Assembly: GCF_013817205.1 (NCBI RefSeq)
Contig: NZ_JACDDD010000006.1
Location: forward strand, 14,282 to 78,281
Reading direction: 5' to 3'
Length of the DNA stretch: 64,000 bases
Source of the DNA: Polaromonas sp.
GTDB lineage: Bacteria > Pseudomonadota > Gammaproteobacteria > Burkholderiales > Burkholderiaceae_C
Under the pieces are notes generated by a model. It ran no database searches and was not told the DNA's origin. It was given only the letters and a program-made list of their open reading frames with translations. A program made the position numbers and the translations under genes. Position 1 is the first letter of the stretch; each line of letters starts with the position of its first letter. This document shows, one piece after another, positions 47,665 to 64,000 of the stretch.

Positions 47665-47766
47665 TGTGCCGGCGTAGTGGCCGACACGCATGAAGTTTAA
47701 GCGCTGTCCGAAACCCGGAGCTGCGCCCGGGCTATTGAATGATGTCTGCCATTTGAAAGCTGTGGC

Positions 47767-47808
47767 GCCGTCCTTGCAAGGGGGAGGAGGCGAAGCCTCC
47801 ACGGGGTG
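47767..47808 (+). repeat. Possible partial relative of family B
   Basis: GCCGTCCTTGCAAGGGGGA-GGAGGC[GAA]GCCTCC-ACGGGGTG; similar G-run, GNA hairpin, GGGG order. Confidence 0.4.
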
Positions 47809-48467: not shown

Positions 48468-49436
48468 TCATTCAGGACGAATACCCGCCTTGCGCACGAC
48501 AGCACCCCACTGCTCGACCTCGTTGCGCATGAACGCGCGCAATTCATCGCGGCTCGAACCTTTGAGATCAATGCCCAGCGTCGTGAGTCGATCGCGGGTA
48601 GAGGGGTGCGCAAGGGCGGCCATGGCCTCCTTGCGCAACCGCTCGATGATCTCGATCGGTGTCGTGGCAGGCGCCACCAGGGCCCACCACTGGTTGAACT
48701 GCATGCCGGCAATCCCCGCTTCTTTGGCCGTGGGCACCTCGGGCAGGCCCGGAAGGCGGGAGGCTCCAGTCACCATCAATGCGGACAGCTTGCCGGCGGA
48801 CAGCAGAGAGTTCCCGCTGGCCATGGTGGCGAAATGGCCGGTCACCGTGCCGGCCACGACATCGGTCAGGGCCGGTGCGGAGCCCCGGTAGGGGATGGGG
48901 TTGATCTTCAGCCCGGTCGCGCCGGCAAACAACTCGCTGGAGAGATGGCTGATGGAGCCATTGCCGCTGTGCGCCAGGGCGAAGGGTGCATCCGAACCTT
49001 TGCCGTTTTTCAGGAAGGCCCTGATGTCACCGTTTTTGTATTGGGAGGCGCTGACAAAGAGCACCAGCGGTGATGAACCGACCATGGAAATGGGTGAAAA
49101 ATCGCGCAGCAGGTCATAAGGCATCTTCGCGAAAACCGCAGGCGCAATCGCATGGGGCAATTCGACGATGGCGAAGGTGTAACCGTCGGGCAGGGCCTTG
49201 GCTGCCGCTTCCGTGCCTATGCGGCCGGAGGCGCCGGAGCGGTTGTCTACGACGACACTCTGGCCCATGGTTTCGCTCATGCGCTGCGCGACTGCGCGGG
49301 CTATCGCATCGGTGCTGCCGCCCGGCGCCCAGGGCACGATCAGGCGAATGGGTTTGTCCGGGTAGGCAGCGTGGGCGCCTGCACCCGACAGACCGACCAG
49401 AGCGGAGATAAGGAGGGGCAGAAGTCGGTTCATCAT
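48468..49436 (-). CDS. Bug/TctC substrate-binding protein
   Basis: YPDKPIRLIVPWAPGGSTD, HSGNGSISHL, PYRGSAPA. Confidence 0.92.
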   Translation of the reverse strand: MMNRLLPLLISALVGLSGAGAHAAYPDKPIRLIVPWAPGGSTDAIARAVAQRMSETMGQSVVVDNRSGASGRIGTEAAAKALPDGYTFAIVELPHAIAPAVFAKMPYDLLRDFSPISMVGSSPLVLFVSASQYKNGDIRAFLKNGKGSDAPFALAHSGNGSISHLSSELFAGATGLKINPIPYRGSAPALTDVVAGTVTGHFATMASGNSLLSAGKLSALMVTGASRLPGLPEVPTAKEAGIAGMQFNQWWALVAPATTPIEIIERLRKEAMAALAHPSTRDRLTTLGIDLKGSSRDELRAFMRNEVEQWGAVVRKAGIRPE

Positions 49437-49469
49437 GGGTTGATTCCTTTCGGGAGGGTACACATCGGG

Positions 49470-50684
49470 TCAGGTAAGACAGCCGGGATTGGCAAGGGGA
49501 TCAAATGGGTCGCGGTCACCTTTGGCCGTCAGCACCAACAGGGCGTGTTCCGACGGGCCGACCTGGCCCTGTTCGCGCAATTGCTGCAGAGCGCTCAGGC
49601 AAGCCCCTGCGCAGAGCTCAACCCAGAAACCATGTGCGGCAAGCCTCGCTGTGCCTTCAATCGCAGCGGCGTCATTCACGACCACGGCGCCCCCACCGGA
49701 TCGCTGGACGGCCAGTTGCTGCTGCAAAGTCACGGTGCCGCCGGCGGTGGAGAATTGCGCGGTCTGCCCGCTGAACTCTGCTTGCGCCGAGGCCCCGGTC
49801 AGAACGTGGCTCAGGCGTGCAAAGGGCTCGACTGCCCACAAGCGCGGCATGTGGCCGATCAGCCCTGCGGTTCGCAGATCACGCAGGCCGCTGTAGATGC
49901 CCCACAGCAGATCGCCGCGGGCTGTCGGCACCAGGATATGGTCGGGCAGGCAACCGGCGGCCACGATCTCCAGTGCCACGGCGCGGTAGCCTTCCACCCC
50001 GAATACCGGGCTACCCACCGCCGGAACGCTGTAGTTGGTCAGGGCAAATGCACCCTCGCTTTCCACCAGCCGGCGCACGTAGTTCCAGCGCTGCGGTCCC
50101 TGGTCGAAGCTAAGCCTTTTTGCGCCCAGTTGATGCAGCGCCCGCGCGAAGGGCGTGGGCATGTCGTGGTAGGTGGCGATCTCGCAGCGCAAGCCTGCGG
50201 CTGCGCAGTAAGCTGCGGCTGAAACTGCGGCGTTGCCACTGGACGCCAGTACAACGGTTGTGGCGCCTACTTCCAGCGCGCGGCTGACGGCTTGGGCGGA
50301 CATCCTGTCCTTGTGCGAGCCGGTCGGGTTCATGCCCTCGTGCTTGATGCTGAGTTGGCCGACGCCAAGCGCATCCGCCAGCTTGGGCAGGTCCAGGCAG
50401 GGTGTGTCACCTTCGCCAAGGGAGATGCCCTGGGTGTACGGCAGCCAGTCGCCCCACATATAACCCGATCTCGCGGGTGACAGTGTTGCTGGCAGCTCAC
50501 TATAAACCGCCTCCAGGCTTGCCGGCATCCCCTGTGCAGCGCAATGGGGGCATCCGGCCGGCCGGTCCTGCAGTGGATATTGGCGAGCGCAAGAAATGCA
50601 ACGAAGGGCGGCCAGACGGGGATTTTGCCGCACGGTTGCTTGCCGGGCCGCCGATTGTTCTGGAACGAGAGACATACGGTTCAT
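49470..50684 (-). CDS. Threonine synthase-like PLP enzyme (fold II) with N-terminal Zn-ribbon
   Basis: CISC...CPHC, SLGEGDTP, NPTGSHKDR, ASSGNA. Confidence 0.85.
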   Translation of the reverse strand: MNRMSLVPEQSAARQATVRQNPRLAALRCISCARQYPLQDRPAGCPHCAAQGMPASLEAVYSELPATLSPARSGYMWGDWLPYTQGISLGEGDTPCLDLPKLADALGVGQLSIKHEGMNPTGSHKDRMSAQAVSRALEVGATTVVLASSGNAAVSAAAYCAAAGLRCEIATYHDMPTPFARALHQLGAKRLSFDQGPQRWNYVRRLVESEGAFALTNYSVPAVGSPVFGVEGYRAVALEIVAAGCLPDHILVPTARGDLLWGIYSGLRDLRTAGLIGHMPRLWAVEPFARLSHVLTGASAQAEFSGQTAQFSTAGGTVTLQQQLAVQRSGGGAVVVNDAAAIEGTARLAAHGFWVELCAGACLSALQQLREQGQVGPSEHALLVLTAKGDRDPFDPLANPGCLT

Positions 50685-50758
50685 GCGTTGAATGTTAAAG
50701 ACCTGCGCCCTTGCCGACATACCGCCGATAATGCGATTAATTAAGTAAAACTTATAGG

Positions 50759-51691
50759 GTGACCGCCATGCTGGAAGCCAGCACACGCCAGATTGAGGTA
50801 TTCCGCATGGTTATGCGGCTGGGCAGCGCCAACCGTGCCGCTGCTGCCCTGCACGTCAGCCAGCCTGCTGTCACGCAGATACTGCAGCAACTGGAGCTGC
50901 GCTCTGAACTGAAGCTGTTTGATCGACCCAAGGGGAAGTTGATGCCAACCCCGGAGGCCCATGCGCTGATGGAAGAAGTCGAGCGCGTGTACGAGGGTCT
51001 GGAGACGGTGCAGCGGAAAATTATGGCGCTGCGCTCTCACGAGGACGCCGTGCTGCGGATTGGCTCCTTGCACGCCATGGCGGCGAGTGTCATTCCTTGG
51101 GCATTGACCGAGTTCCAGCGCAGTTACCCGCGTACACGTTGCCTGCTGTCAGTGGACAGTTCCATCGCCCTGCGGGATGCGCTGTTCCAGGGGGCGGTGG
51201 ACTTGGCCTTCCTGGGTGACGAGGCCGATACAGGGGGGCTGGTCTCTTCTGTTTTTTACGAAGTGCCTGCGGTCTGCGTGATGCCTGCCGCTCACCCGCT
51301 GGCACGTCGGCCCCAGCTTGGCGCGGCGGATTTGCGCGATATTGCGCTGGTGGGACTGGCAGCGTCTGATCCCGCGCAGCGGCGCCTGGAGGCGGCGTTT
51401 GCGCAAGCGGGCATTCAGCCGCGCTTTGTGATTGAAACGCCTTACAGCGCCACCCAATGTTCGCTGGTGCTGGCTGGCGCCGGCCTGGCTGTGACCAACC
51501 CTCTTGTTGCGCGCGAGTATGTGGCGATGGGGCTGCGTTGTGTGCACTTCGTCGCGGGTGTGAGTTTTCGGGCTTTGCTGGCGTTCAAGCCGCGCCAGGC
51601 CCAGTCAGGTGCTGCACAGGAGTTCGTTGCGCTTTGCCGCCGTTACCTTTCAAACGGCCTGCCCGCCGGCCCGGTGCCTGATACGCCTTAG
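50759..51691 (+). CDS. LysR family regulator
   Basis: RQIEVF...AAAALHVSQPAVTQ; TAAG-N5-CTTA (T-N11-A) at 50732-50744. Confidence 0.93.
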   Translation: MTAMLEASTRQIEVFRMVMRLGSANRAAAALHVSQPAVTQILQQLELRSELKLFDRPKGKLMPTPEAHALMEEVERVYEGLETVQRKIMALRSHEDAVLRIGSLHAMAASVIPWALTEFQRSYPRTRCLLSVDSSIALRDALFQGAVDLAFLGDEADTGGLVSSVFYEVPAVCVMPAAHPLARRPQLGAADLRDIALVGLAASDPAQRRLEAAFAQAGIQPRFVIETPYSATQCSLVLAGAGLAVTNPLVAREYVAMGLRCVHFVAGVSFRALLAFKPRQAQSGAAQEFVALCRRYLSNGLPAGPVPDTP

Positions 51692-52620
51692 GCCACCTCG
51701 ACGGGCGTGACGGTAACGGCCACGTCCAACACATGGCGGGCACCGCCGCGGATCACGCCGCGCATGGGCGAGACGTCGAGGAAGTCGCGGCCGGTGGCCA
51801 GGGTCACATAGTCTTCGCCGGGGGCGCGGTTGTTGGTCGGGTCGAAGTCAAGCCACACGCCGGGGTTTTGCCCGACCGCCAGCCGCATGCGGGCGGCGTC
51901 GCTGGACAGCGGGCAATAGACCGACGCCCAGGCGTGCGAGGCGTCGCTGCCGATCAGGCGTGGCTTGCCGGGCGGCGGGTTGGTCAGCATGTAGCCGCTG
52001 ACGTAGCGCGCCGGAACACCCATGGCGCGGCAGCAGGCCACCATGATGTGGGCAAAGTCCTGGCACACACCTTTGCCAGACTGCAGCGCCTCCAGCGCCG
52101 GCGTGCCGACGTCGGTGCTGTCGCTCTCGTAAGTCATGCGGGCGTGAATCCGCTCCATCAGATCCTGGGCAACCTCGGGCAAGGGGCGCCCGGGGGTAAA
52201 GCTGGGGCGTGCAAACTCTGCAAAGGCGTCGTCGCGCGGTACATAAGGCGAGGCAAACACAAACTCGCAGGCGCTGTCGTAGGCGCCGCCTGCCTGATAG
52301 CGAAACTGCTCGCGCACCTGTTCCCACGGCAGGCCCCATGACAAGTCCTTGACGGCGCTGTTGACCGCAAGGGTGGAAACCACGCTCTCGGCGGTCACAG
52401 TCAGTGTGTCGTGCGGCACGCGCAGCGAGAAAAACGTGCGGGCATTGCCATACACGTCTGTCAGTTCCCGCAATTGCGTGGGCTCAGGGCTGATGGCGAG
52501 GCTGTGTTTCAGTAGTTGCTGGCCTGCGTGGCTGGCGGGCTTGAGATGCAACACATGATGCGCGTTCTCGACCTGCGGTTTATACCGGTAGCGGGTTTCG
52601 TGAACGAGGTGAAGCAGCAT
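51688..52620 (-). CDS. Transglutaminase-like protein
   Basis: HETRYRY N-domain; triad GVCQDFAH / SHAW / DFDPT. Confidence 0.92.
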   Translation of the reverse strand: MLLHLVHETRYRYKPQVENAHHVLHLKPASHAGQQLLKHSLAISPEPTQLRELTDVYGNARTFFSLRVPHDTLTVTAESVVSTLAVNSAVKDLSWGLPWEQVREQFRYQAGGAYDSACEFVFASPYVPRDDAFAEFARPSFTPGRPLPEVAQDLMERIHARMTYESDSTDVGTPALEALQSGKGVCQDFAHIMVACCRAMGVPARYVSGYMLTNPPPGKPRLIGSDASHAWASVYCPLSSDAARMRLAVGQNPGVWLDFDPTNNRAPGEDYVTLATGRDFLDVSPMRGVIRGGARHVLDVAVTVTPVEVA

Positions 52621-52661
52621 GACAAAAAAGATCGGTCGAGGCGGGAAACTGGGAAACGGGC

Positions 52662-55442
52662 TCAGGCGCCCAGGCTGTGGTCGCTGGATGCAGCGTGGCT
52701 GAAATAGCGTCGGCTGATCGCGTCAGACAGTTCAAAAGCGGCGCTGCAGCATTGCTCCAGCTGCGCCAGCAGCCCGGCGTGGCGCTCGCTTTCCATGCCG
52801 GGAATGGCGACGCTGAGGTCGGCCAGTTGCCAGCTGCCGGGGTTGGGCAGGGCGCTTGTCATGTCGGGCACGTCCTGCACCGCGCCTGCCGTATTGCGCG
52901 ACAGCTTGCTGAGCCGCTCGCGCAGTGTCTGGGTGACCCAGCCGAGTGAACGCGGGTTGTCGCGGTCCAGCACCAGTAGATCCAGCAAGGCCGGGACTTC
53001 GCGTTGTTGCTGGTACTGCGCGTGGAAAGTGATGGTGCTGTCAAAGAACGCAATGATGGCGTCGAATCCGCCCGCGTCATGCACGGCACCGGTTTCAAAG
53101 CCCAGGATCAGCGCGGCAGCCAGCGTGTTCAGACGCTCAATGTGGCGGCCTGTGCTCAGCAGGCGCCAGCCGTCGTCGCGTGTCATGCGGTCGGTTTGCG
53201 CGCCGGTCATGGCTGCCAGGAAACTGCTGGCAGACTCCAGCGCGCGCAGAGCTTCCACGGACGAATATTCAAGCGCCTGGGTGGCCGGATGCTCCGGACC
53301 GCTGAAAGACGCGCAGTGCCGGAAAAAATCTTCATCTGCCCGCACGATCACATGCCATTGCTCTTGCGACAGGCGCTCGCGCACGGCCGAGGCGGCGCTT
53401 TTGAGGGAGCGCAGGTTGTAGCCGACGCTGGCGGCTTGCTCGGTGTCGGCCAGCGCAGAAATCAGCGACCTCTCGAACACGCGGCGCGCCTGCGTGGCCG
53501 GTGGCACGGACTCCAGCACCAGACCATTGCGCACCGCCATCTCGGACAGCCAGGCCAGCAGGGGTTGAGACGACTGCTCCTCGCCGCTGAGTGATTGCAG
53601 TGTCAATTGGGCCAGGCGAATCGAGTTTTCGGTACGTTCGGTGTATCGGCCCAGCCAGAAGAGGTTCTCTGCCGCGCGGCTGGTCACCGGCGGTTTGTGG
53701 CGCGCAATTGGGGTGCTTGGGTTTAAAACGCCGGGTCGGGTGGTGGGCTCGGTAAAAGCTTTTGTTCCGCGAGTGCTCTGTGCTGCAGCAGGCTCAACGT
53801 CCGCGGCCAGTGCCCATACGTCGGCACTGCTGCCGCCTTGCTGCATGGACGCAATCTTGTTGTTGGGGCCGGCCAGCCGCGCCAGCCCGCCCGGCAAAAC
53901 CTGCCATTCGCCCGTACCATCAGCCACCGCAAAAACGCGCAGCATGGTGGACCGCGGCGCAAGCCGCTCGCCATGCCAGGTCGGCGTTTGCGACAGGGGC
54001 AGGTAGGCCTGCACGGTGTACTCCTCGCTATGCCGCATGATGCGGCCGGCCCATTCGTCCAGCTCACGGCGGGACAACATTTGTGCAATCACCGCCTCTG
54101 TGCCGGAGCCGGGGTAGGTGCCCTTGATGACGCAGTCTTTCAGACGGGGCAAGACCTCATGCAAGGCGGCCTGCTCGCCGCACCACCAGGTGGCCAGCGA
54201 GGGCAGGGCGAGCGGCTCGTTAAGCAGATGGCGCGAAAGCGCGGGCAAAAATCCCAGTAACGCACTGGACTCCAGAAAGGCCGAGCCCGGCGCGTTGGCC
54301 ACCAGCACATGGCCTGCCCGTATCACCTGCAGCAAACCGGGTACGCCCAGGGTGGAGTCGGAACGCAGCTCCAGCGGATCCAGAAACTCATCGTCCAGGC
54401 GCTTGAGCAAGCCGTGCACGGGCTCCAGTCCCTGAAGCGTCTTGAGATACAGTCGGTCGCCGCGCACCAGCAAGTCGCTGCCTTCCACCAGGGTCAGGCC
54501 AAGGTAACGCGCCAGGTAGGCGTGTTCAAAATAGGTTTCGTTGTACGGGCCGGGTGTCAGCAGCACGATACGGCTGTCCTCGCCATCAGCGCCCGCCTGG
54601 CAGCGCGCTTTCATGCCATCTATCAGGGTTTTGTAAGAGGCTGCGAGCCGCTGCACTTTCATCTCGCGAAAGGCTTGCGGGAACAGCCGCGAGATAGCGA
54701 GCCGGTTTTCCAGCAGGTAGCCCAGGCCAGATGGTGCCTGGGTACTTTGCGAGACCACCCACCAGCGCCCGTCGGGGCCGCGCGCCAGGTCAAAAGCCGC
54801 AATGTGCAGGAAGTTGCCCTCAGCGGGTTTTATGCCGTGCATCGCGCGCAGATAGCCCGGGTGGCCTTGCACCAGCGCCGCCGGCAACAGGCCTTGCGCC
54901 AGCAATTGCTGAGGGCCGTAAACGTCGGCCATGATGTGGTCCAGCAGGCGTGCGCGCTGACGGACACCGGTTTCGATGCCGGCCCACTCCTGGGCTGAGA
55001 GGATGACCGGAAACAGGTCCAGCGACCACGGCCGCTGCGGGCCATCAGCATCGGCATACACGTTGTAGGTCACGCCGTTGTCGCGGATCTGGCGCTGCAG
55101 ATTGGCGCTGCGGTGGTTCAGGTCATCAAAACCCTTGCCGCCCAACAATTCGAAAAAGCGGTTCCAGCTGGGTGACAGTGCGGCCTGGGCATCGGTTTTC
55201 TCGGCAGTTTTAGATGGGGCGGCTTGCACCTGAGCCGGTTCCGTACCCGCCATTTGCAGCGATGTGCGCTGGGTCTGGTTTTGACTGGCGGCGGGCGTGA
55301 TCGGCCCCGTGCCGATTGCTATGGCCGTGACGCCATGCAGCTCGTTAAAGTGGCCAGGATCAGCGGGCAGCGCCAGGGCGCGCGCAAGATCAACTGAGGT
55401 CTCCAGCGCTGCTGCCGCAAAAAGTGATTTGTTATTTTCCAC
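52662..55442 (-). CDS. Circularly permuted ATP-grasp ligase fused to alpha-E domain
   Basis: NGVTYNVY, QAPSGLGYLLENR, TPGPYNETYFEH, GGLAR, QQGGSSADVW; alpha-E AENLFWLGRYTER and GRHIER. Confidence 0.92.
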   Translation of the reverse strand: MENNKSLFAAAALETSVDLARALALPADPGHFNELHGVTAIAIGTGPITPAASQNQTQRTSLQMAGTEPAQVQAAPSKTAEKTDAQAALSPSWNRFFELLGGKGFDDLNHRSANLQRQIRDNGVTYNVYADADGPQRPWSLDLFPVILSAQEWAGIETGVRQRARLLDHIMADVYGPQQLLAQGLLPAALVQGHPGYLRAMHGIKPAEGNFLHIAAFDLARGPDGRWWVVSQSTQAPSGLGYLLENRLAISRLFPQAFREMKVQRLAASYKTLIDGMKARCQAGADGEDSRIVLLTPGPYNETYFEHAYLARYLGLTLVEGSDLLVRGDRLYLKTLQGLEPVHGLLKRLDDEFLDPLELRSDSTLGVPGLLQVIRAGHVLVANAPGSAFLESSALLGFLPALSRHLLNEPLALPSLATWWCGEQAALHEVLPRLKDCVIKGTYPGSGTEAVIAQMLSRRELDEWAGRIMRHSEEYTVQAYLPLSQTPTWHGERLAPRSTMLRVFAVADGTGEWQVLPGGLARLAGPNNKIASMQQGGSSADVWALAADVEPAAAQSTRGTKAFTEPTTRPGVLNPSTPIARHKPPVTSRAAENLFWLGRYTERTENSIRLAQLTLQSLSGEEQSSQPLLAWLSEMAVRNGLVLESVPPATQARRVFERSLISALADTEQAASVGYNLRSLKSAASAVRERLSQEQWHVIVRADEDFFRHCASFSGPEHPATQALEYSSVEALRALESASSFLAAMTGAQTDRMTRDDGWRLLSTGRHIERLNTLAAALILGFETGAVHDAGGFDAIIAFFDSTITFHAQYQQQREVPALLDLLVLDRDNPRSLGWVTQTLRERLSKLSRNTAGAVQDVPDMTSALPNPGSWQLADLSVAIPGMESERHAGLLAQLEQCCSAAFELSDAISRRYFSHAASSDHSLGA

Positions 55443-55564
55443 TGCTACCTTTGAACAGGCTCCAAGTATCCTTCATGGCCGGCCCGCCCCCGGCCTTGAC
55501 AGGCAAGACTGCCCGTATTCAATCCCCGGTGTCGCTACCATAAGACAAAGAAGGTGATTGTTCG

Positions 55565-56077
55565 ATGGCCGGTGTGAGCTTTACTGCCACTATTTTTTTG
55601 CAGGGCATCAACCCCTATGTGCTGGTGAGTGCCGCCAGGGCGCGCGCCATCCGACCGGAGTGGCGTAAACCGCTGCAGGTTCTTGCTCGTGTCAACGGCA
55701 AACCTGAACAGGCCTGGCGCGTCAACATGATGCCCGTGGGGAACGGCAGTTTTTACCTCTTCCTGCACGAAACCGTTCGCACCGCCTCCGGCACCGGCGT
55801 GGGTGACCGGGTGCGTATCGAGTTGGCGTTCGACGAGGCGTACGAAGGCGGCCCGGCCCATCCTGTTCCGGTCTGGTTTGAGCAGGCACTGTCAAGCAAC
55901 GCCGCGGCAGCAGCCAACTGGGCGGCGCTCAGTCCGAGCCGAAAGAAGGAAGTTCTGCGTTATTTCGCAGGCCTGAAAACTCAGGCGGCGCGAGAACGCA
56001 ATCTTGAAAAAGCCATGCTTGTGCTCTCGGGGCAGGCCGGACGGTTCATGGCGCGCAGCTGGGCGCAGGGCCGCTGA
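55565..56077 (+). CDS. DUF1905 + YdeI/OmpD-associated domain protein
   Basis: ARVNG...MMPVGNGSFYL, GVGDRV, WAALSPSRKKE...R...LEKA. Confidence 0.8.
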   Translation: MAGVSFTATIFLQGINPYVLVSAARARAIRPEWRKPLQVLARVNGKPEQAWRVNMMPVGNGSFYLFLHETVRTASGTGVGDRVRIELAFDEAYEGGPAHPVPVWFEQALSSNAAAAANWAALSPSRKKEVLRYFAGLKTQAARERNLEKAMLVLSGQAGRFMARSWAQGR

Positions 56078-56462
56078 GGATGTCATCGACCAGCCGCTGG
56101 TCTTCGTCGCACACCCAGCACTCCCTCAGGTTGCCGTCCTGCACGCGGTAACGCAGCAGTCGTTCCACCACCACGGTTTTTCCCTGGTGCTTAAACTGTT
56201 CAACCGCGATGATCGCGCCAAAGTGCTCGCCCACCAGTACGTCGCGGATGGCAAGCAGCTTGCGACTGGTTTTGTCCCGCACCTGCCTGAGAACGGCCAG
56301 GCAAGCGGCTTTTCCGCGATGCGTGCCTGCCAGCGGGTTGCGTCCGAAGTAGTGAAAAATCACCTCGTCGTGGTAGCTGTCCACCATGGTTTGCAGATCA
56401 TTCGCTTCCCAAGCGGCGGCGTAGCGTGTGACCGCTGCGGCGATTTGTTCCGTTTCACGCAT
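56046..56462 (-). CDS. NTF2/SnoaL-like protein
   Basis: YHDEVIFH, PLAGTHRGK, YRVQDGNLRE. Confidence 0.8.
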   Translation of the reverse strand: MRETEQIAAAVTRYAAAWEANDLQTMVDSYHDEVIFHYFGRNPLAGTHRGKAACLAVLRQVRDKTSRKLLAIRDVLVGEHFGAIIAVEQFKHQGKTVVVERLLRYRVQDGNLRECWVCDEDQRLVDDILSGPAPSCAP

Positions 56463-57195
56463 GCAAGGCCGATCGTGCAGTTGGCGCCAAGCGATGCGAC
56501 TCGGCGGTCTTGAGTAGATAGGCCGCAAGCTGAGGCGCGATCTTTTGCTGCCACGCCATCGACGCACCGAAAGTTTCATACGCGCGCACATCTTCAAAAA
56601 GCGCCAGGCCAACAAGCACACATTCGCCCGTGCGCACAGGCAGCCGTGTGAAGGTGTTTTCACTGGTCTCGTTGACATACCAGCCTTGCTGGATCGCTCC
56701 GCCTTCGCCTAAAACCTGCGCCATCTCTTGCCTGCAAAACGCCAGCAGATCAGCCGAAGCCGGCTGCTTCAAATAGAAAATCGTGAGGTCCACAAAGCCA
56801 CGCGGAATTGTCGACTCTCGCTTGTCCGCTCGCCCACGCAAGTCAACCGGAAAGTGTGCTCCCGCCCAGGCGGGACGCAACAGCAGTACGTTGTCAGAAT
56901 CAATCATCGTGGCATTCGCCACGTTGCGATGGGTTTGCCACACCGCGCCGCCGTAAAAGGCGGCGAGCGCATCGTGGCGTGTCTGCATGGTGCTGAAACC
57001 GCGCAGCCACACAAATCGGTTCGCGTCATCAAGATCACGAAACTGGCCGAGGACCGGCATGCCCACCGCATCTTGCGTCTCAAGAAATTCACGATCAAAC
57101 AAGTCGATGAGCACATCCCGTTTGTGAGGATGCAGGGTGTATTGCCTCAGTTCAAGGACATCCAGCGCATAGCGTTCAAGCAGAGAGTGATTCAT
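56455..57195 (-). CDS. NIPSNAP family protein
   Basis: ELRQYTLHP, GQFRD, FVWLRGF, NATMIDSDNVLLLRP. Confidence 0.85.
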   Translation of the reverse strand: MNHSLLERYALDVLELRQYTLHPHKRDVLIDLFDREFLETQDAVGMPVLGQFRDLDDANRFVWLRGFSTMQTRHDALAAFYGGAVWQTHRNVANATMIDSDNVLLLRPAWAGAHFPVDLRGRADKRESTIPRGFVDLTIFYLKQPASADLLAFCRQEMAQVLGEGGAIQQGWYVNETSENTFTRLPVRTGECVLVGLALFEDVRAYETFGASMAWQQKIAPQLAAYLLKTAESHRLAPTARSALHA

Positions 57196-57229
57196 ACAGT
57201 TCCAGTCAGTGGGTAGAAAAGGCGAGGCG

Positions 57230-58210
57230 CTAGGACTCCAGCCTGGTGTAGTTCATGGTCCAGTTGGGCTGCCAGGTCAGGCCCTCGTCAGCGGAAATGG
57301 CTTGCTCCCAGCGGGGCTGCGCGGTGTTCAGTCGCGACCATGTGTGGCGCAGTCGCACAGGCCGACCGTCGATTTGGTCATTGCCTTCCAGTACGCCCTG
57401 GCTGTCGCTGAATCCACCGGTCAGAGCTGGCTGCAACAGACCGTCTCGTGCGGAGACCCAGTAAGCCTTCCAGCGCTGCGCCGCCACGTCAAACAGATGG
57501 ACGGACAGGCCCAGCGGCACGCCTGCACCATCGCGCAATTCGTCATAGTTGGCCAAGCCGCCCAGCAGCGGCTCGCAGATTTGCAGGCCGTCAAAACTCT
57601 CCCACTCATTTCCGTTTTGTGGGGTGGGAAGCAGGCGACGGTTCTGCACCTTCCACTGGCCGAAGAAGAAATCGAAGTCGTGGTTGGCCGAAGGCAGCGC
57701 TTGTTGTGTCGGTGGTGCCGCGTCGCTGCGGGTGAAGGTCATGACCCAGTTGGTCTCCCAGGTCTTACCGTCGTCAGTGGAAAAGGCCTGTTTCCAGCGC
57801 GGCGTTGCGGTGTGTGTGCCCGACCAGGTGTAGCGCACCCGAACCGGCTGGCCTTCGTGGGTGTCCACCCCTTCAAAGACGCCAGTGCCATTGAAAAACT
57901 CGCCTGTAACTGGCGGCTGCAACAGGCCGTCCTCCGGGCTGACCCAATAGATATTCCACTGCCGGGTCTGCAGGTCAAGAAAGCGCAGCGACATGCCGAC
58001 CGGGCCGGCGTCATGAAGCATTTCATCGGTATTGCCCATGCCGCCCAGCAGCGGCTGGCAATACTGGGTGGCGTCAAACTCTTCCCAGTCGGTGCAGCGT
58101 TGCAGCCGCTGGCGCAAGCGCTGGTTGTGTACCCGCCAGTGGCCGAATAAAAAATCAAAATCATGCAGACCTTCGGTGGGGTCTGACGCGGCTTGTGCGG
58201 TTGCGCTCAT
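57230..58210 (-). CDS. Tandem two-domain Trp-rich beta-barrel-like protein (DUF1579-like)
   Basis: Two repeats HDFDF(L/F)FG(H/Q)W...YWVS...GLLQP...RW.QA.S.D.G.TW..NW.M..TR; AGGAGG SD. Confidence 0.75.
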   Translation of the reverse strand: MSATAQAASDPTEGLHDFDFLFGHWRVHNQRLRQRLQRCTDWEEFDATQYCQPLLGGMGNTDEMLHDAGPVGMSLRFLDLQTRQWNIYWVSPEDGLLQPPVTGEFFNGTGVFEGVDTHEGQPVRVRYTWSGTHTATPRWKQAFSTDDGKTWETNWVMTFTRSDAAPPTQQALPSANHDFDFFFGQWKVQNRRLLPTPQNGNEWESFDGLQICEPLLGGLANYDELRDGAGVPLGLSVHLFDVAAQRWKAYWVSARDGLLQPALTGGFSDSQGVLEGNDQIDGRPVRLRHTWSRLNTAQPRWEQAISADEGLTWQPNWTMNYTRLES

Positions 58211-58272
58211 GCATTTCCTCCTGTTGCCCGTTAGCCAAACCGGCCCCGGTCAAGCCAATGTAAAAGCGTAAT

Positions 58273-58289
58273 AGGGCGATATCGGCCCT
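58273..58289. promoter_or_regulatory. Putative operator of the WYL regulator
   Basis: AGGGC-GATATCG-GCCCT in the divergent gap; minus-strand -10-like TACATT at 58256-58261. Confidence 0.55.
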
Positions 58290-58311
58290 GATTAAGTTTT
58301 AAACTGCTTTC

Positions 58312-59256
58312 ATGTATTCACCCACCACACGCGTGCTCACGGTGCTGGAGCTTTTGCAAAGCCACGGCCGGATGAGTGGCGCCGATCTGGCACGTCGGCT
58401 GGACGTGGATGGCCGCACCTTGCGCCGCTACATCGCCAAATTGGAAGACCTGGGAATCCCCGTGGTGGCTGAGCGTGGCCGTTATGGCTGTTACAGCCTG
58501 ATTGCCGGTTTCAAGCTGCCACCCATGATGTTCACAGATGACGAGGCGCTGGCCTTGTCCATTGGCCTCGTGGCAGCACGCGGTCTGGGCCTGGCCGAAG
58601 CTGCTCCCGCAGTGCAAAGCGCGCAGGCCAAGCTGGAGCGGGTGATGCCCGGCAAACTCAAAAACCGCATTCGGGCCCTGGCCGAGACAGTCACGCTGGA
58701 CCTGGCCCGCTCGGTGGCGCAGGGAGACAACACGGCGCTGCTGGCCTTAAGCGATGCCGCCCACGGCTGCCAGCGTGTGCACCTGGACTACCGCTCAGCG
58801 GATGGCTCGGTGACCGAGCGGGACATGGACCCCTATGGGCTGGCTTTTCGGGGAGGGCGCTGGTATGTGGCCGGTTGGTGCCACTTGCGAAAGGATTTGC
58901 GCTCGTTTCGGCTCGACCGTGTGTTGCAGGTGCAGGCGCTCAATGCCGTGTTTACACCGCCGGCCGATTTCAACGCCGTGCAATACCTTGCGCTGGGCAT
59001 TGCCACCTTGCCGCGCGCCTTCAGTATTCGTGTCTTGCTGCATACCAACGTAGAAGCCGCGCAAGCCCAGCTGTTTGAAGGCATTGGTGTTTTTCAGCCC
59101 TGCGAGGAGGGTGTGGTGCTGCACGCGCAGGCCGACGACTTGCCCTGGTTTGCACGCCAGTTGGCCAGGCTGTCGTGTGACTTCGAGATCCGGCATCCAC
59201 CCGCTTTACGCAAGGCTCTGAAGGTTAGTGCCGAGCGGCTGCTCAAGCTGGTTTAG
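58312..59256 (+). CDS. YafY-family HTH-WYL-WCX regulator
   Basis: RTLRRYIAKLEDLGIPV, RGRYGCY, DPYGL...WYVAGWCHLRKDLRSFRLDRV. Confidence 0.93.
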   Translation: MYSPTTRVLTVLELLQSHGRMSGADLARRLDVDGRTLRRYIAKLEDLGIPVVAERGRYGCYSLIAGFKLPPMMFTDDEALALSIGLVAARGLGLAEAAPAVQSAQAKLERVMPGKLKNRIRALAETVTLDLARSVAQGDNTALLALSDAAHGCQRVHLDYRSADGSVTERDMDPYGLAFRGGRWYVAGWCHLRKDLRSFRLDRVLQVQALNAVFTPPADFNAVQYLALGIATLPRAFSIRVLLHTNVEAAQAQLFEGIGVFQPCEEGVVLHAQADDLPWFARQLARLSCDFEIRHPPALRKALKVSAERLLKLV

Positions 59257-59280
59257 ATCCAGCTCAAGCGGGCCCCAGCT

Positions 59281-62200
59281 CTAACGCAAATCCATCGTGA
59301 ACGGAAACTCACGGCTGGGCTGCGCTGGCTGGACCTGGATGCGCCCGGGCGTATGGCCCATCTGGAAAAAGCGGTTCAGGCGTCGGCTTTCGGCTTCGTA
59401 GGAGTTCACCGGCAGGGTGTCGTAGCTCAGGCCGCCCGGGTGCACCACATGGTATTGGCAGCCTCCCAATGAACGTTCCATCCAGGTGTCGACAATGTCA
59501 AAGGTCAGCGGCGCATGCACGCCCACCGAGGGGTGCAGGGCCGATGGCGGGTTCCAAGCCTTGTAGCGCACACCGGCCACGTATTCGCCCACCGTGCCCG
59601 TGTTTTGCAGTGGCAGCGTGCGGCCGTTAACCGTGATGACATAACGGTTGTCGTTGAGGCCGGTGACATGCACCTCGACACGTTCGAGCGATGAGTCCAC
59701 ATAACGCACGGTGCCGCCGGACGAGCCTTCCTCGCCCATGACGTGCCAGGGCTCCAGCGCGCTGCGCAAAGTCAGCTCGATGTTGTTGGCCTTGACTTGG
59801 CCGATCATCGGAAAGCGGAACTCGAAGTGCGGCTCGAACCAGGCCATGTCAAAACCGTAACCAGCCTCGTTGAGCTCGGTCAGCACATCGGCAAAGTCCT
59901 GTCGGACAAAGCCGGGTAACAGGAAGCGGTCATGGAGCTCTGTGCCCCAGCGCGTCATGCGGCCGTGATACGGCTTGTTCCAGAAACGCGCCACCAGCGC
60001 ACGCAGCAGCAACTGCTGCACGATGCTCATGCGGGCATGCGGTGGCATTTCAAAAGCGCGCAACTCCAGCAGGCCGAGGCGGCCCGTGGCCGAGTCGGGT
60101 GAGTACATCTTGTCGATGCAGAATTCGCTGCGGTGGGTGTTGCCAGTCACATCGACCAGGATGTTGCGCAGGGTGCGGTCAACGATCCACGGCGGCATGT
60201 CCTGGCCGTATTTCTGGCGGTTGGTGGTGATCTCGCGCAGCGCGATTTCCAGCTCGTACAGCTGGTCATTGCGCGCTTCATCAATCCGTGGCGCCTGGCT
60301 GGTAGGCCCGATGAACATGCCCGAGAACAAGTAGCTCAGTGACGGGTGGTTGTGCCAGTAGGCAATCAGGCTGCCCAGCATTTCTGGTTTGCGCAAAAAC
60401 GGGCTGTCGGGCGGTGTGGCACCGCCCATCACAAAGTGGTTGCCGCCGCCCGTGCCGGTGTGGCGGCCATCGGTCATGAACTTTTCAGCAGACAGCCGTG
60501 TTTCGTGCGCGATTTTGTAGAGAAACTCGGTGTGTTCAACCAGCTCGTTCCAGTTGTAGGCCGGGTGGATGTTGACTTCAATGACGCCGGGGTCGGGCGT
60601 GACCTGCAGCATTTTCAGGCGCGGGTCGCGCGGCGGTGGATAGCCCTCAAGCACGATCTGCAGATTCAGCGTTTGCGCACTGGCTTCGATCGCGGCCAGC
60701 AAGTCCAGGTATTCCTCGAGCCGCTCTACCGGCGGCATGAAGACGTAAAGCGCGCCGGTGGGCGGTTTGGTGCCGACCTCGCCCGCGGCGCGCTTGACTT
60801 TGGGCTCGTCCTTGGGTCCGTTGGCGCGGGCAGGGTCGCGCACTTCCACACACAGCGCAATGCGCGGCAGCCAGGGTGCCGACTGTTTGGACGCCGGCAT
60901 GCGGTCTGCATCTTTGGCAAGGGCGGCTGCGGCTGGTTCGACTGGAACCGCGGCGTCTGCGACCGCTGCACGTCGTTCGCTGATGGTTTCGGCGGAAGGC
61001 AGTTCCTCACGCGGCGCAAAGGGGTCGGCCTCGTTGACGCCGGGGTTGTCGGTTTTGGACACCCAGGGCATGGCGTCAAGTGGAAGGCGATAACCCATGG
61101 GCGAGTCGCCCGGGGCAAGGTACATGCGGTCATCCCGAAAGTACCAGGGACCGGTGGCCCACAACGGGCCCGTGGCCGGCGCGTTGTCTGATTCTTCCCG
61201 TACCTTGAGCGGCAGCACATAACCGACCACCGCATCCAGACCCTGCGAAAACACGCGGCGCAGGCGCTCGCGTTCCATCGCGTCGTCCAGCTTGGTGTCA
61301 AACGGGTCCACGTTGACGGGCAGGCGGCGCTCGCGCCAGAGGTAGTACCAGGTGTCTTCATACCCCGGTGTGATGTGCTGGGCAGACAGGCCGAGCTTGC
61401 CGGCCAGCGTTTCGGTGAAACGGCGCGCATCGTCGCTGGTGTAGCTGCAAGGCTGGCGCTCGTCGGTGAACAGCTCGGGGTTTTTCCAGACTGGCTGGCC
61501 ATCCTTGCGCCAGAAAATGCTGAGCGCCCAACGCGGCAATTGTTCACCGGGGTACCACTTGCCCTGGCCAAAATGCAAAAAGCCGCCCTGGCCGTACTCC
61601 GCGCGCAGCTTTTGCACCAGCTCCGTGGCGTAGCCGCGTTTGGTCGGGCCCAGGGCGTCGATGTTCCACTCTGCCGCGTCCCGGTCCTGCGTGGCAACAA
61701 AGGTTGGCTCGCCGCCCATGGTCAGACGCACATCGCCAGCGAGCAGATCCTGGTCCACCTGGTGACCCAGCTTGAGCACATCGGCCCATAACGCGTCGGT
61801 ATAGGGCTGGGTCACGCGTGGCGATTCGAAAATGCGCTGCACCCCCATGTGGTGGGCGAACTCCACTTCGCTTTTGTCGACGCCGCCTTCTATCGGCGCA
61901 GCGCTCGATGGCTCCGGCGTGCAGGCCAGCGGGATGTGGCCTTCACCCGCCATCAGACCGGACGTCGGGTCCAGGCCGACCCAGCCGGCGCCGGGCAGGA
62001 ACACCTCGCACCAGGCGTGCAGGTCGGTGAAGTCGCTTTCCGCACCGCTGGGACCGTCCAGCGACTTGACGTCAGCCTTGAGCTGGATCAGGTAGCCCGA
62101 GACAAAACGCGCCGCCAGCCCCAGATGCCGGAACAGCTGGACCATCAGCCAGCCGGTATCGCGGCAGGAGCCGATGGCGAGTTGCAGGGTTTCTTCTGGC

Positions 62201-62703
62201 GTCTGCACGCCGGGCTCCATGCGGATGGCGTATTTGATGTCGCCCTGCAACTTCTGGTTCAGCCCGACCAGGAAGTCGATGGTGCGTTTGGGCGTGCGGT
62301 CCACGCCGTTCAGGTAGGCCTTGAGCAGCGGCGTGAGCGTCTCGGTCGCTAGGTAGGGCGCCAGTTCGCGCGCCTGATCCTTGCTGTAGGTGAAGGGAAA
62401 CTCCTCTGCTTCGGGCTCGAGGAAGAAGTCAAAGGGGTTGAACACCGCCATCTCGACGACCAGGTCAACCGTGACCTTGAACTCCCGCGTGGGTTCAGGA
62501 AACACCAGCCGCGCCTGGTAGTTGGCAAACGGGTCCTGCTGCCAGTTGATGAAGTGGCCCTTGGGCTCGACGCTCAGCGAATAGGACAGCACCTTGGTGC
62601 GGCTGTGCGGGGCAGGGCGCAGGCGCACGACTTGGGGGCCGAGCTTGACCAGGCGGTCGTATTTGTAGTGGGTGATGTGGCTCAGGGCAACGTGGATGGA
62701 CAA
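59281..62703 (-). CDS. Transglutaminase + DUF2126 putative amidoligase
   Basis: GSCRD, DLHAW, GLDPT triad; LTMGGEPTFV, DPGVIEVN, GTGGGNH, WHNHPSLSYLF, GLLELRAFEMPP; TTG start. Confidence 0.92.
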   Translation of the reverse strand: MSIHVALSHITHYKYDRLVKLGPQVVRLRPAPHSRTKVLSYSLSVEPKGHFINWQQDPFANYQARLVFPEPTREFKVTVDLVVEMAVFNPFDFFLEPEAEEFPFTYSKDQARELAPYLATETLTPLLKAYLNGVDRTPKRTIDFLVGLNQKLQGDIKYAIRMEPGVQTPEETLQLAIGSCRDTGWLMVQLFRHLGLAARFVSGYLIQLKADVKSLDGPSGAESDFTDLHAWCEVFLPGAGWVGLDPTSGLMAGEGHIPLACTPEPSSAAPIEGGVDKSEVEFAHHMGVQRIFESPRVTQPYTDALWADVLKLGHQVDQDLLAGDVRLTMGGEPTFVATQDRDAAEWNIDALGPTKRGYATELVQKLRAEYGQGGFLHFGQGKWYPGEQLPRWALSIFWRKDGQPVWKNPELFTDERQPCSYTSDDARRFTETLAGKLGLSAQHITPGYEDTWYYLWRERRLPVNVDPFDTKLDDAMERERLRRVFSQGLDAVVGYVLPLKVREESDNAPATGPLWATGPWYFRDDRMYLAPGDSPMGYRLPLDAMPWVSKTDNPGVNEADPFAPREELPSAETISERRAAVADAAVPVEPAAAALAKDADRMPASKQSAPWLPRIALCVEVRDPARANGPKDEPKVKRAAGEVGTKPPTGALYVFMPPVERLEEYLDLLAAIEASAQTLNLQIVLEGYPPPRDPRLKMLQVTPDPGVIEVNIHPAYNWNELVEHTEFLYKIAHETRLSAEKFMTDGRHTGTGGGNHFVMGGATPPDSPFLRKPEMLGSLIAYWHNHPSLSYLFSGMFIGPTSQAPRIDEARNDQLYELEIALREITTNRQKYGQDMPPWIVDRTLRNILVDVTGNTHRSEFCIDKMYSPDSATGRLGLLELRAFEMPPHARMSIVQQLLLRALVARFWNKPYHGRMTRWGTELHDRFLLPGFVRQDFADVLTELNEAGYGFDMAWFEPHFEFRFPMIGQVKANNIELTLRSALEPWHVMGEEGSSGGTVRYVDSSLERVEVHVTGLNDNRYVITVNGRTLPLQNTGTVGEYVAGVRYKAWNPPSALHPSVGVHAPLTFDIVDTWMERSLGGCQYHVVHPGGLSYDTLPVNSYEAESRRLNRFFQMGHTPGRIQVQPAQPSREFPFTMDLR

Positions 62704-62813
62704 GTTCGGTCTCGCTTCTCAGAAATATCGGGGCGTTGTGGCAACTATGCCGCAGAAATCGCATGTTGGCCGTTTGCCGGCCTGCATTCAACGGTTTTTA
62801 TATCGCCGCTACA

Positions 62814-62830
62814 AGCAAGAGCTGCGCCAA
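62814..62830 (-). promoter_or_regulatory. sigma54 (-24/-12) promoter for the DUF2126 gene
   Basis: Minus strand TTGGCGCAGCTCTTGCT, GG-N10-GC. Confidence 0.75.
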
Positions 62831-62926
62831 AGGCCTGTTAGCCTGTCAGCGGATATGCGGGACTGGCCGTTGATCGTTGATAGATCTCGCCGCAGCACAC
62901 AAAAGAATATTCAACCAGGGAGGCAT

Positions 62927-64000
62927 GTGCGACCAGGGCTTTTAGCGACATCACCGGTCCGGGTGGCGGGTCTGGTTTTTTGCGGATTTGTCGCAGGCGC
63001 GGCCTTGCAGCTTCAGCAGCCCGTGTTGCACCCCGCCTGGGTGTATGGCGCATGGCTTGCCGCTTCGCTGATGGCCGCGCTGGTGACTGCGCGGGTGTAT
63101 CGCCGCATGCCACCGGGCGCGGTGCTCGCCTTGCAGGCCGCCGCCTTGTTGCTGGCGCTGGTGTTCGGCTTTGGTCTGACTGGGTTGCGTGCGGTCATCT
63201 TTCAGGCTGGCGCGTTGTCGCCAGCACTGGAAGGCCGCGACATCGAGGTCACGGGCCGGGTCCTGGCCATGCCTCAGCGCGGCGACTACGGCTTGCGTTT
63301 TCGCTTTGCCATTGAGTCAGCCCGGCTGGACGGTGCGCCGGTGGACTTGCCGCCCCGGGTTTACCTTGGCTGGTATACCGGTTTCGGTTTAAGGGAGCCC
63401 GCAGCCGGCACCGGCGGCCCCGACAATCCCGAGGTCGGCGCCAGCCCCACCGCCGCGCTGGCCTTGCAGCGCCAGCCGCCAGCCCTGCGCGCCGGCGAAC
63501 GCTGGCAAATGACGGTGCGCCTGAAAGCGCCGCATGGCAACAGCAACCCGCGTGGCTTCGACTACGAACTCTGGCTTTGGGAACAGGGTTTGCAGGCGAC
63601 CGGCTATGTGCGCGCCGGGCCGCGGGACCCCGCGCCACGGCTCATCTCTGACAGCTGGCGGCACCCGGTTGAACGTGCGCGGCAGGCGTTGCGCGATGCG
63701 GTCTACGCACGGGTGAGCGACCGCCACCTCGCCGGTGTGGTGGCGGCGCTGCTGATGGGCGACCAGAATGCCATCGACCGTGCTGACTGGGATGTGTTTC
63801 GCGCCACCGGCGTGGCGCACCTGATGTCCATCTCCGGTCTGCACATCACCATGTTCGCCTGGCTGGCGTCGCAGGGCGTGGGGTGGTTCTGGCGGCGCTC
63901 TGCGCGCTGGAGTCAGGCCCTGTGTCTGGCGCTGCCGGCGGGGGGCGCGGGGGCTTGGGGCGGCTTGCTGCTGGCGGCCGGCTATGCCTTGCTCTCGGGC
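62927..64000 (+). CDS. comEC: ComEC/Rec2 DNA-uptake channel, 5' part (runs off window)
   Basis: Manual translation: RLKAPHGNSNPRGFDYE...ATGVAHLMSISGLHIT; frame open to window end; GTG start uncertain. Confidence 0.9.
   Translation, partial: MRPGLLATSPVRVAGLVFCGFVAGAALQLQQPVLHPAWVYGAWLAASLMAALVTARVYRRMPPGAVLALQAAALLLALVFGFGLTGLRAVIFQAGALSPALEGRDIEVTGRVLAMPQRGDYGLRFRFAIESARLDGAPVDLPPRVYLGWYTGFGLREPAAGTGGPDNPEVGASPTAALALQRQPPALRAGERWQMTVRLKAPHGNSNPRGFDYELWLWEQGLQATGYVRAGPRDPAPRLISDSWRHPVERARQALRDAVYARVSDRHLAGVVAALLMGDQNAIDRADWDVFRATGVAHLMSISGLHITMFAWLASQGVGWFWRRSARWSQALCLALPAGGAGAWGGLLLAAGYALLSG

Follow-up and report, generated by a model that had tools for sequence, protein, structure and literature searches.

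Gene clusters encoding a transglutaminase (TGase)-like protein fused to DUF2126, a circularly permuted ATP-grasp (cpATP-grasp) protein with an alpha-E domain, and a small TGase-like protein were predicted as a type by Iyer, Burroughs, and Aravind in 2008 (PMC2588565) and reportedly by Iyer et al. in 2009 (Mol Biosyst 5:1636, as cited in PMC5666114). We analyzed one such cluster in a 64,000-nucleotide (nt) stretch of Polaromonas sp. contig NZ_JACDDD010000006.1 (positions 14,282 to 78,281), which is referred to as the window. The Mycobacterium tuberculosis genes Rv2566, Rv2567, and Rv2569c are presumed orthologs of its three genes, in part on the basis of the description of Rv2566 published in 2008, with Rv2569c as the presumed homolog of the small TGase. 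Protease activity was reported in a paper on Rv2569c. The Rv2566 family was placed in the carboxylate-amine ligase superfamily by profile searches, and Iyer, Burroughs, and Aravind favored the synthesis of a glutathione-like peptide metabolite over protein conjugation for this family (PMC2588565).

The regulation of related clusters has been described in other bacteria. In nitrogen-limited Burkholderia cenocepacia H111, the loss of ntrC lowered BCAM1233 (DUF404/407, cpATP-grasp), BCAM1234 (DUF403, alpha-E), BCAM1235 (TGase), and BCAM1236 (large TGase protein) by a log2 of 6.0 to 9.4; these four genes are among the common sigma-54/NtrC targets, and RpoN dependence was shown for them (PMC5491218). 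Pseudomonas putida PP_2686-2688 were up 11- to 37-fold under nitrogen limitation (PMC7801951). The related operon often carries the gene for the proteasome-like Anbu, and the papers on the Anbu operon cite induction by nitrogen starvation (PMC5666114, PMC6376114). When the Yersinia operon proteins were co-expressed and used in pull-downs, neither complexes nor activity were seen (PMC6376114).

The locus in the window is probably a Comamonadaceae ortholog (its closest named homologs are from Polaromonas) of the TGase-DUF2126 / cpATP-grasp-alpha-E / small TGase cluster that has been split locally. It resembles the Rv2566/Rv2567/Rv2569c-type cluster (PMC2588565) in its three proteins, in their domain architectures, and, in all close relatives, in gene order, and differs from it in that the operon is broken by a five-gene cassette. 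An earlier reading of this sequence (the original prediction) had described positions 51688-62830 as a single sigma-54-driven system with two writer-eraser pairs. The core features of the cluster are as follows:

62814..62829, minus strand: predicted sigma-54 (-24/-12) promoter TGGCGCagctcTTGCT, with 10 of 12 consensus matches and conservation in the genus

59281..62703, minus strand: TGase-DUF2126 protein of 1140 amino acids (aa), with Pfam Bact_transglu_N, Transglut_core, and full-length DUF2126

52662..55442, minus strand: ATP-grasp/alpha-E fusion protein of 926 aa, with Pfam PF14403 (1e-144) and PF04168 (8e-58)

51688..52620, minus strand: small TGase-like protein of 310 aa, with Pfam Bact_transglu_N and Transglut_core

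All three proteins have the architecture of the cluster type, that is, a TGase fused to DUF2126, a cpATP-grasp domain with alpha-E, and a small TGase with a catalytic triad. The 1140-aa protein matched PF08379 (5e-27), PF01841 (1e-14), and PF09899 (E = 0 across the full model, 1-826), and the C180/H229/D245 triad of its N-terminal TGase-like domain was unchanged in 44 homologs (alignment A6). In the 926-aa fusion, the cpATP-grasp domain spans residues ~145-524 and alpha-E residues ~587-914, with both ER motifs of alpha-E kept at 598-603 and 765-770. The ATP-grasp part matched the structural-genomics PDB entry 3N6X at 8e-83 over residues 113-545, and this match and the full-length Pfam match together indicate a predicted ATP-grasp fold; the nearest homolog of the fusion is 94% identical. 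The 310-aa protein carries the triad C186/H229/D260 and matched PDB 3ISR at 1e-13, with the Cys and Asp motifs aligned. The original prediction had placed these genes, domains, and Cys-His-Asp triads on one strand, and at the protein level it was correct, because the domains, triads, ER motifs, and 3N6X match were all present and the Pfam searches, the 44-homolog alignment, and the 3ISR alignment bore it out. The ratios of nonsynonymous to synonymous substitution rates (dN/dS) against the closest relative were 0.07 for the DUF2126 gene, 0.12 for the ATP-grasp/alpha-E gene, and 0.11 for the small TGase gene, indicating that all three core genes are intact and, by this measure, under purifying selection. 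No NCBIfam model matched any of the three core proteins, and an Rfam scan of 51-64 kb gave no match.

In this genome the three genes do not form the contiguous operon of the cluster type. An insert of 3.7 kb (~55562-59280), which makes up one third of the span of the original prediction, separates the DUF2126 gene from the ATP-grasp/alpha-E gene and contains five unrelated genes. These genes and the native sequence next to them are listed below:

58312..59256, plus strand: helix-turn-helix (HTH)-WYL-WCX transcription regulator (Pfam WYL 4e-23, HTH_11, WCX)

57230..58210, minus strand: 326-aa protein of two tandem halves, from the open reading frame (ORF) list (internal repeat D1, spacing 483 nt)

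56455..57195, minus strand: NIPSNAP-like protein (Pfam NIPSNAP 1.4e-6)

56046..56462, minus strand: SnoaL-like protein (Pfam SnoaL_2 2e-10, residues 83-185 of a long ORF)

55565..56077, plus strand: DUF1905/YdeI (OmdA)-like protein (Pfam OmdA 1e-12, DUF1905 2e-8)

55443..55561, minus strand: remnant of the native DUF2126-to-ATP-grasp intergenic region, aligning with that of relatives from TTTGTCTTA onwards

The WYL regulator gene is convergent with the DUF2126 gene, with 24 nt between them, and the DUF1905/YdeI-like gene is divergent from the ATP-grasp gene. The 326-aa protein had no Pfam or NCBIfam family and gave a sub-threshold BNR/Asp-box match only. The SnoaL-like gene presumably starts at an internal Met that overlaps the NIPSNAP stop. 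In the junction alignments, the DUF2126 stop codon is immediately followed by the insert, and the return to native intergenic sequence is marked by TTTGTCTTA, which lies 120 nt before the ATP-grasp start. The G+C content of the insert is below that of the flanking genes, and a scan for mobile-element signatures revealed no terminal inverted repeats, target duplication, or transposase.

In the closest relative, whose large protein is 92% identical, the three genes follow one another without interruption, and the spacer measures 78 nt. The contiguous operon was also found in at least nine other genomes (G006, G009, G008, G010, G018, G015, and G004, plus G022 and G024 from other families of the order), and the DUF2126-to-ATP-grasp distance in relatives was 40-130 nt, with the shortest spacers at 40-55 nt. 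Orthologs also occur in the cultured Polaromonas strain JS666. The WYL regulator is not present at this site in relatives; the pair formed by the regulator and the 326-aa gene has a 74% identical counterpart elsewhere in G009. G011 carries a different insert of ~1.2 kb at the equivalent intergenic site (L015:13930-15155), with a minus-strand ORF of no assigned family, and the site seems prone to insertion. Because the relatives are contiguous, the junctions could be mapped, part of the insert is found elsewhere in G009, and a different insert is present in G011, the 3.7-kb segment is a lineage-specific insertion into an ancestral operon. The single system proposed over 51688-62830 thus holds for the genes, all of which are present, and fails for the span, which is interrupted by five genes, two of them on the other strand, a split that the original prediction did not mention.

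A sigma-54 promoter was recognized as GG-N10-GC with TGGCAC-N5-TTGCW-like elements, oriented upstream of a gene. TGGCGCagctcTTGCT lies ~110 nt upstream of the start codon of the DUF2126 gene, the position of which is conserved while TTG, GTG, and ATG interchange. The match could be accidental, with the DUF2126 gene read from an ordinary promoter: the motif alone occurred twice in the window against 0.65 expected, which is not above chance, and a looser form occurred 179 times in the genome. However, the -24/-12 block was kept in register in 13 of 13 genus genomes while its flanks diverged (alignment A1; 17 orthologous upstream regions, mean column identity 36%), a near-identical motif stands upstream of a paralogous module (described below) in nine genomes, and sigma-54 dependence of the orthologous cluster has been published. 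An accidental match is therefore scarcely credible. The significance of the promoter derives from its conservation across the genus and not from the motif count, and on this basis TGGCGCagctcTTGCT is regarded as a real, if predicted, sigma-54 promoter. The motif was not evident in G022 or G024.

Several other sequence blocks were noticed around this promoter. In the 5' leader (62704-62813, minus strand), six genomes have the block TTTCTGCGGCATAGT in common. Most of the genus has a TCAACGG block ~40 nt before the -24 element (62830-62900, minus strand), which may be an IHF-type site. Further upstream, a CATGC-N7-GCATG palindrome is present in G004, G015, G016, and G018 and absent from the window. 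The second exact TGGCRC-N5-TTGCW match in the window (47763-47778, plus strand) lies opposite a YjgF/RidA gene and is probably due to chance, since no convincing gene follows it.

The genome has one rpoN gene and only three true enhancer-binding proteins, one of which is an NtrC equivalog (TIGR01818, 672 bits versus a cut-off of 559) encoded on the same contig as the cluster. The enhancer-dependent, nitrogen-linked control put forward in the original prediction is supported by the genus-conserved -24/-12 block, by the presence of rpoN and the NtrC equivalog, and by the B. cenocepacia and P. putida data. By analogy with these homologs, the cluster would be activated by NtrC and hence induced by nitrogen limitation.

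We infer that the promoter at 62814-62829 now directly serves the DUF2126 gene only, because a transcript reaching the downstream pair would have to cover 3.7 kb, in antisense to two genes. A scan of the 860 nt preceding the ATP-grasp/alpha-E gene, on the strand of that gene, revealed no sigma-54-like motif that matched at 10 or more of 12 positions. The picture of two putative writer-eraser pairs, read from domain content, under one sigma-54 promoter is thus not supported in this genome, where the downstream pair is cut off by the insert and has no sigma-54 motif of its own. Because they are intact and apparently under purifying selection, the ATP-grasp/alpha-E and small TGase genes are evidently still used, either from another promoter or by read-through from the cassette. 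A scan for sigma-70 promoters, which are poorly predicted in such G+C-rich DNA, returned none in 11.7 kb.

Despite the insertion, the whole span might still be read through as one sigma-54-driven transcription unit, as the title of the original prediction implies. The sequence from the DUF2126 stop to the insert showed no hairpin resembling a terminator, and the continued purifying selection on the downstream genes also agrees with such a unit. Nevertheless, the transcript would extend antisense across the WYL regulator and DUF1905/YdeI genes, a distance of 3.7 kb compared with 40-130 nt in relatives, which makes this explanation highly unlikely. Alternatively, the downstream pair may have been captured by the cassette and be read through from a WYL-controlled promoter of the 326-aa/NIPSNAP/SnoaL genes. 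These three genes lie directly upstream on the same strand, the WYL regulator is divergent from them, and no promoter motif was found in the 122 nt upstream of the ATP-grasp gene. That last finding, however, has to be read with the poor prediction of sigma-70 promoters in this G+C-rich genome, and the opposite-strand DUF1905/YdeI gene stands between the cassette trio and the ATP-grasp gene. Capture by the cassette is accordingly considered possible, though unlikely.

Beyond the DUF2126 gene lie comEC and a paralogous module (module 2) that begins outside the window:

62855..64000, plus strand: 5' part of comEC, start uncertain (Pfam DUF4131, Competence, and Lactamase_B on the full gene in L026)

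L026:3828-7406 (C104:79828-83406), ~1.5-5 kb past the window end: module 2, with a stand-alone cpATP-grasp protein of 518 aa, an alpha-E protein of 319 aa, and a TGase of 272 aa

The comEC gene is divergent from the DUF2126 gene and lies between the cluster and module 2, an arrangement that relatives share. The true start of module 2 is probably the ATG at L026:3884 (MSGAKF...). In this genome the module is preceded by the sigma-54 motif TGGCGCattccTTGCT. The motif is kept as TTGGCGCAT..CTTGCTAAGCT in 9 of 9 genus genomes, where a GGAGA-ATG start follows ~45 nt downstream; G021, which belongs to another family, has a perfect TGGCACaaccgTTGCA ahead of its equivalent module. In both G024 and G021, the gene for the stand-alone cpATP-grasp protein shares the strand of the DUF2126 gene and precedes it by ~2.4-3.5 kb, which matches the four-gene B. 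cenocepacia cluster. With that cluster (I35_5080-5083, or BCAM1233-1236, in H111), the present locus shares the order Burkholderiales, the four protein types (homology taken from the annotations of the paper), and a sigma-54 promoter, which is predicted here. In B. cenocepacia, the stand-alone module and the large protein are together, whereas here they are separated by comEC and have a predicted promoter each. After module 2, genes for an MltB-like lytic transglycosylase and a TgpA-type membrane protein (TgpA_N and Transglut_core) were observed at L026:7411-10775; counting the TgpA-type protein, four TGase-fold proteins are encoded within 35 kb.

Module 2 also contains the first three genes of the canonical Anbu operon (cpATP-grasp, alpha-E, TGase, Anbu; P. 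putida PP_2685-2688, P. aeruginosa, and Yersinia bercovieri), in the same order and with the same link to nitrogen limitation (PMC5666114, PMC6376114, PMC7801951). The present locus differs in that Anbu is on another contig and in that the window genes represent a variant of the DUF2126 type, in which ATP-grasp and alpha-E are fused in one protein. The absence of an Anbu gene from the window, as stated in the original prediction, was confirmed, and none was found next to the cluster or module 2. The only Anbu gene of the genome (C127:1028-1855, minus strand; 275 aa, MTYCV...) matched the designed Anbu structure 5LOY at 3e-93. It is unlinked to the ligase modules and sits between mutS, 15 nt upstream of it, and an alpha/beta hydrolase gene. 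Neither this Anbu gene nor module 2 with its promoter figured in the original prediction.

According to the explanation that we favor, the three genes ancestrally formed a single operon under a conserved predicted sigma-54 promoter, paired across comEC with the paralogous cpATP-grasp / alpha-E / TGase module under its own conserved sigma-54 promoter, and the 3.7-kb five-gene cassette entered directly after the DUF2126 stop codon in this genome. The biochemical part of this explanation is tentative. Amide bonds of the gamma-glutamyl or peptide type might be made by the two cytoplasmic ATP-dependent carboxylate-amine ligases and be cleaved or transferred, in a thiol-dependent manner, by the papain-fold domains with their Cys-His-Asp triads. 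The substrate could be a small peptide-like metabolite or the alpha-E partner, in our cautious view more probably than the proteome at large, and the role could conceivably be nitrogen scavenging or recycling induced by nitrogen starvation. A nitrogen-storage peptide, one of the products suggested in the original prediction, fits poorly with such induction: because the genes are induced by nitrogen shortage, a storage polymer seems unlikely.

The ligase assignment of DUF2126 is putative and comes from PMC2588565. A Pfam scan of 40 diverse DUF2126 members, with E-values up to 5, found no ligase family. An alignment of DUF2126 with GCS2 by hhalign was statistically weak (E 0.033, probability 1.5%), and within it GGNHFVMGG (GGNHxxxGG) was paired with GQHVHVG and LLELRAFEMPP with TIEIRVFDTPL, in co-linear order. 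The weakness of this alignment is the first of several results that weigh against the explanation given above. The AlphaFold 2 (AF2) model of the DUF2126 protein, built from an alignment of homologs at least 68% identical, was poor (pLDDT 59, pTM 0.46), and a Foldseek search of the PDB with this poor model recovered the TGase domain only. PDB searches with the single sequence, a shallow profile, and a diverse 50%-identity profile likewise gave no ligase for the DUF2126 part, and the profile searches retrieved nothing beyond the TGase domain. As regards regulation, the 220 nt preceding the promoter contained no canonical NtrC box (GCAC-N7-GTGC), and conservation across the genus did not extend to the upstream region, where the 17-region alignment showed no conserved activator site. 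For this reason, NtrC was assigned as the activator by precedent and elimination. Furthermore, Rv2411c and Rv2567, tested as candidates, made no gamma-aminobutyric acid (GABA)-trehalose and were not further characterized (bioRxiv 10.64898/2026.04.15.718621), and our literature search found no paper giving the biochemistry, substrate, or product for any member of the cluster type, so that the statement in the original prediction that the cluster lacked biochemical characterization still holds in the literature searched. The AF2 model of the ATP-grasp/alpha-E fusion, from an alignment with the same identity limit, was also poor (pLDDT 47). A canonical NtrC box exists at another promoter of this genome.

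The enzymes may instead act in protein tagging for recycling, in which the ligases would attach an amino acid or peptide to target proteins or alpha-E, or amidate Glu on them, the TGase-like domains would remove the mark, and the unlinked Anbu would degrade the tagged proteins during nitrogen starvation, as an analog of pupylation in proteobacteria. DUF2126 has been placed in the ligase superfamily of the Pup ligase PafA (PMC2588565), the related operon is often found with Anbu and is induced by nitrogen starvation, and this genome encodes an Anbu with a clear match to 5LOY. The likeness to PafA, the depupylase Dop, and GCS2 (YbdK) carboxylate-amine ligases consists of a superfamily reported to include DUF2126 and of the two catalytic motifs that were co-linear in hhalign (probability 1.5%). 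Unlike in the PafA/Dop systems, no Pup-like substrate gene or small Pup-like ORF and no proteasome ATPase are present here. Moreover, Anbu is directly downstream of mutS in this genome, the 2008 authors preferred peptide-metabolite synthesis (PMC2588565), and the Yersinia proteins showed neither complexes nor activity (PMC6376114). Protein tagging thus appears unlikely. It is distinctly unlikely that the three ligase/TGase modules around comEC and the unlinked Anbu form one NtrC-induced pathway that covalently marks proteins, or a Glu-rich alpha-E, and recycles them for nitrogen. If this were true, it would be a proteobacterial counterpart of pupylation, with a writer, an eraser, and a protease that have been known as genes since 2008 and never connected biochemically.

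The DUF2126 family comprises at least 8000 clusters at 90% identity and 6248 representatives at 50% identity, and the locus is one more copy of a very widespread cluster, with the five-gene insertion as its sole local peculiarity. In the two model organisms measured, the cluster ranks with the genes that nitrogen limitation induces most strongly, and solving its chemistry would fill a real gap in bacterial nitrogen physiology. The regulatory idea of the original prediction is right but already published for homologs. The present locus adds little leverage, because its regulation matches the Burkholderia and Pseudomonas publications and those bacteria are better experimental systems. Its local interest lies in the natural split, in which the DUF2126 gene keeps the nitrogen promoter, while the other two genes have apparently lost it and are nonetheless still maintained by purifying selection. 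This is a hint that the cell may produce the two halves in varying ratios.

On the other side of the cluster, genes for a LysR-type regulator (plus strand), a pyridoxal phosphate (PLP)-dependent enzyme, and a TctC-type receptor (window 48468-51691) lie between the small TGase gene and the YjgF/RidA gene. The closest relative has RidA immediately after the small TGase. The segment 48468-51691 looks like a second insertion of ~3.2 kb adjoining the cluster. The LysR gene is convergent with the small TGase gene and overlaps its stop by 4 nt.

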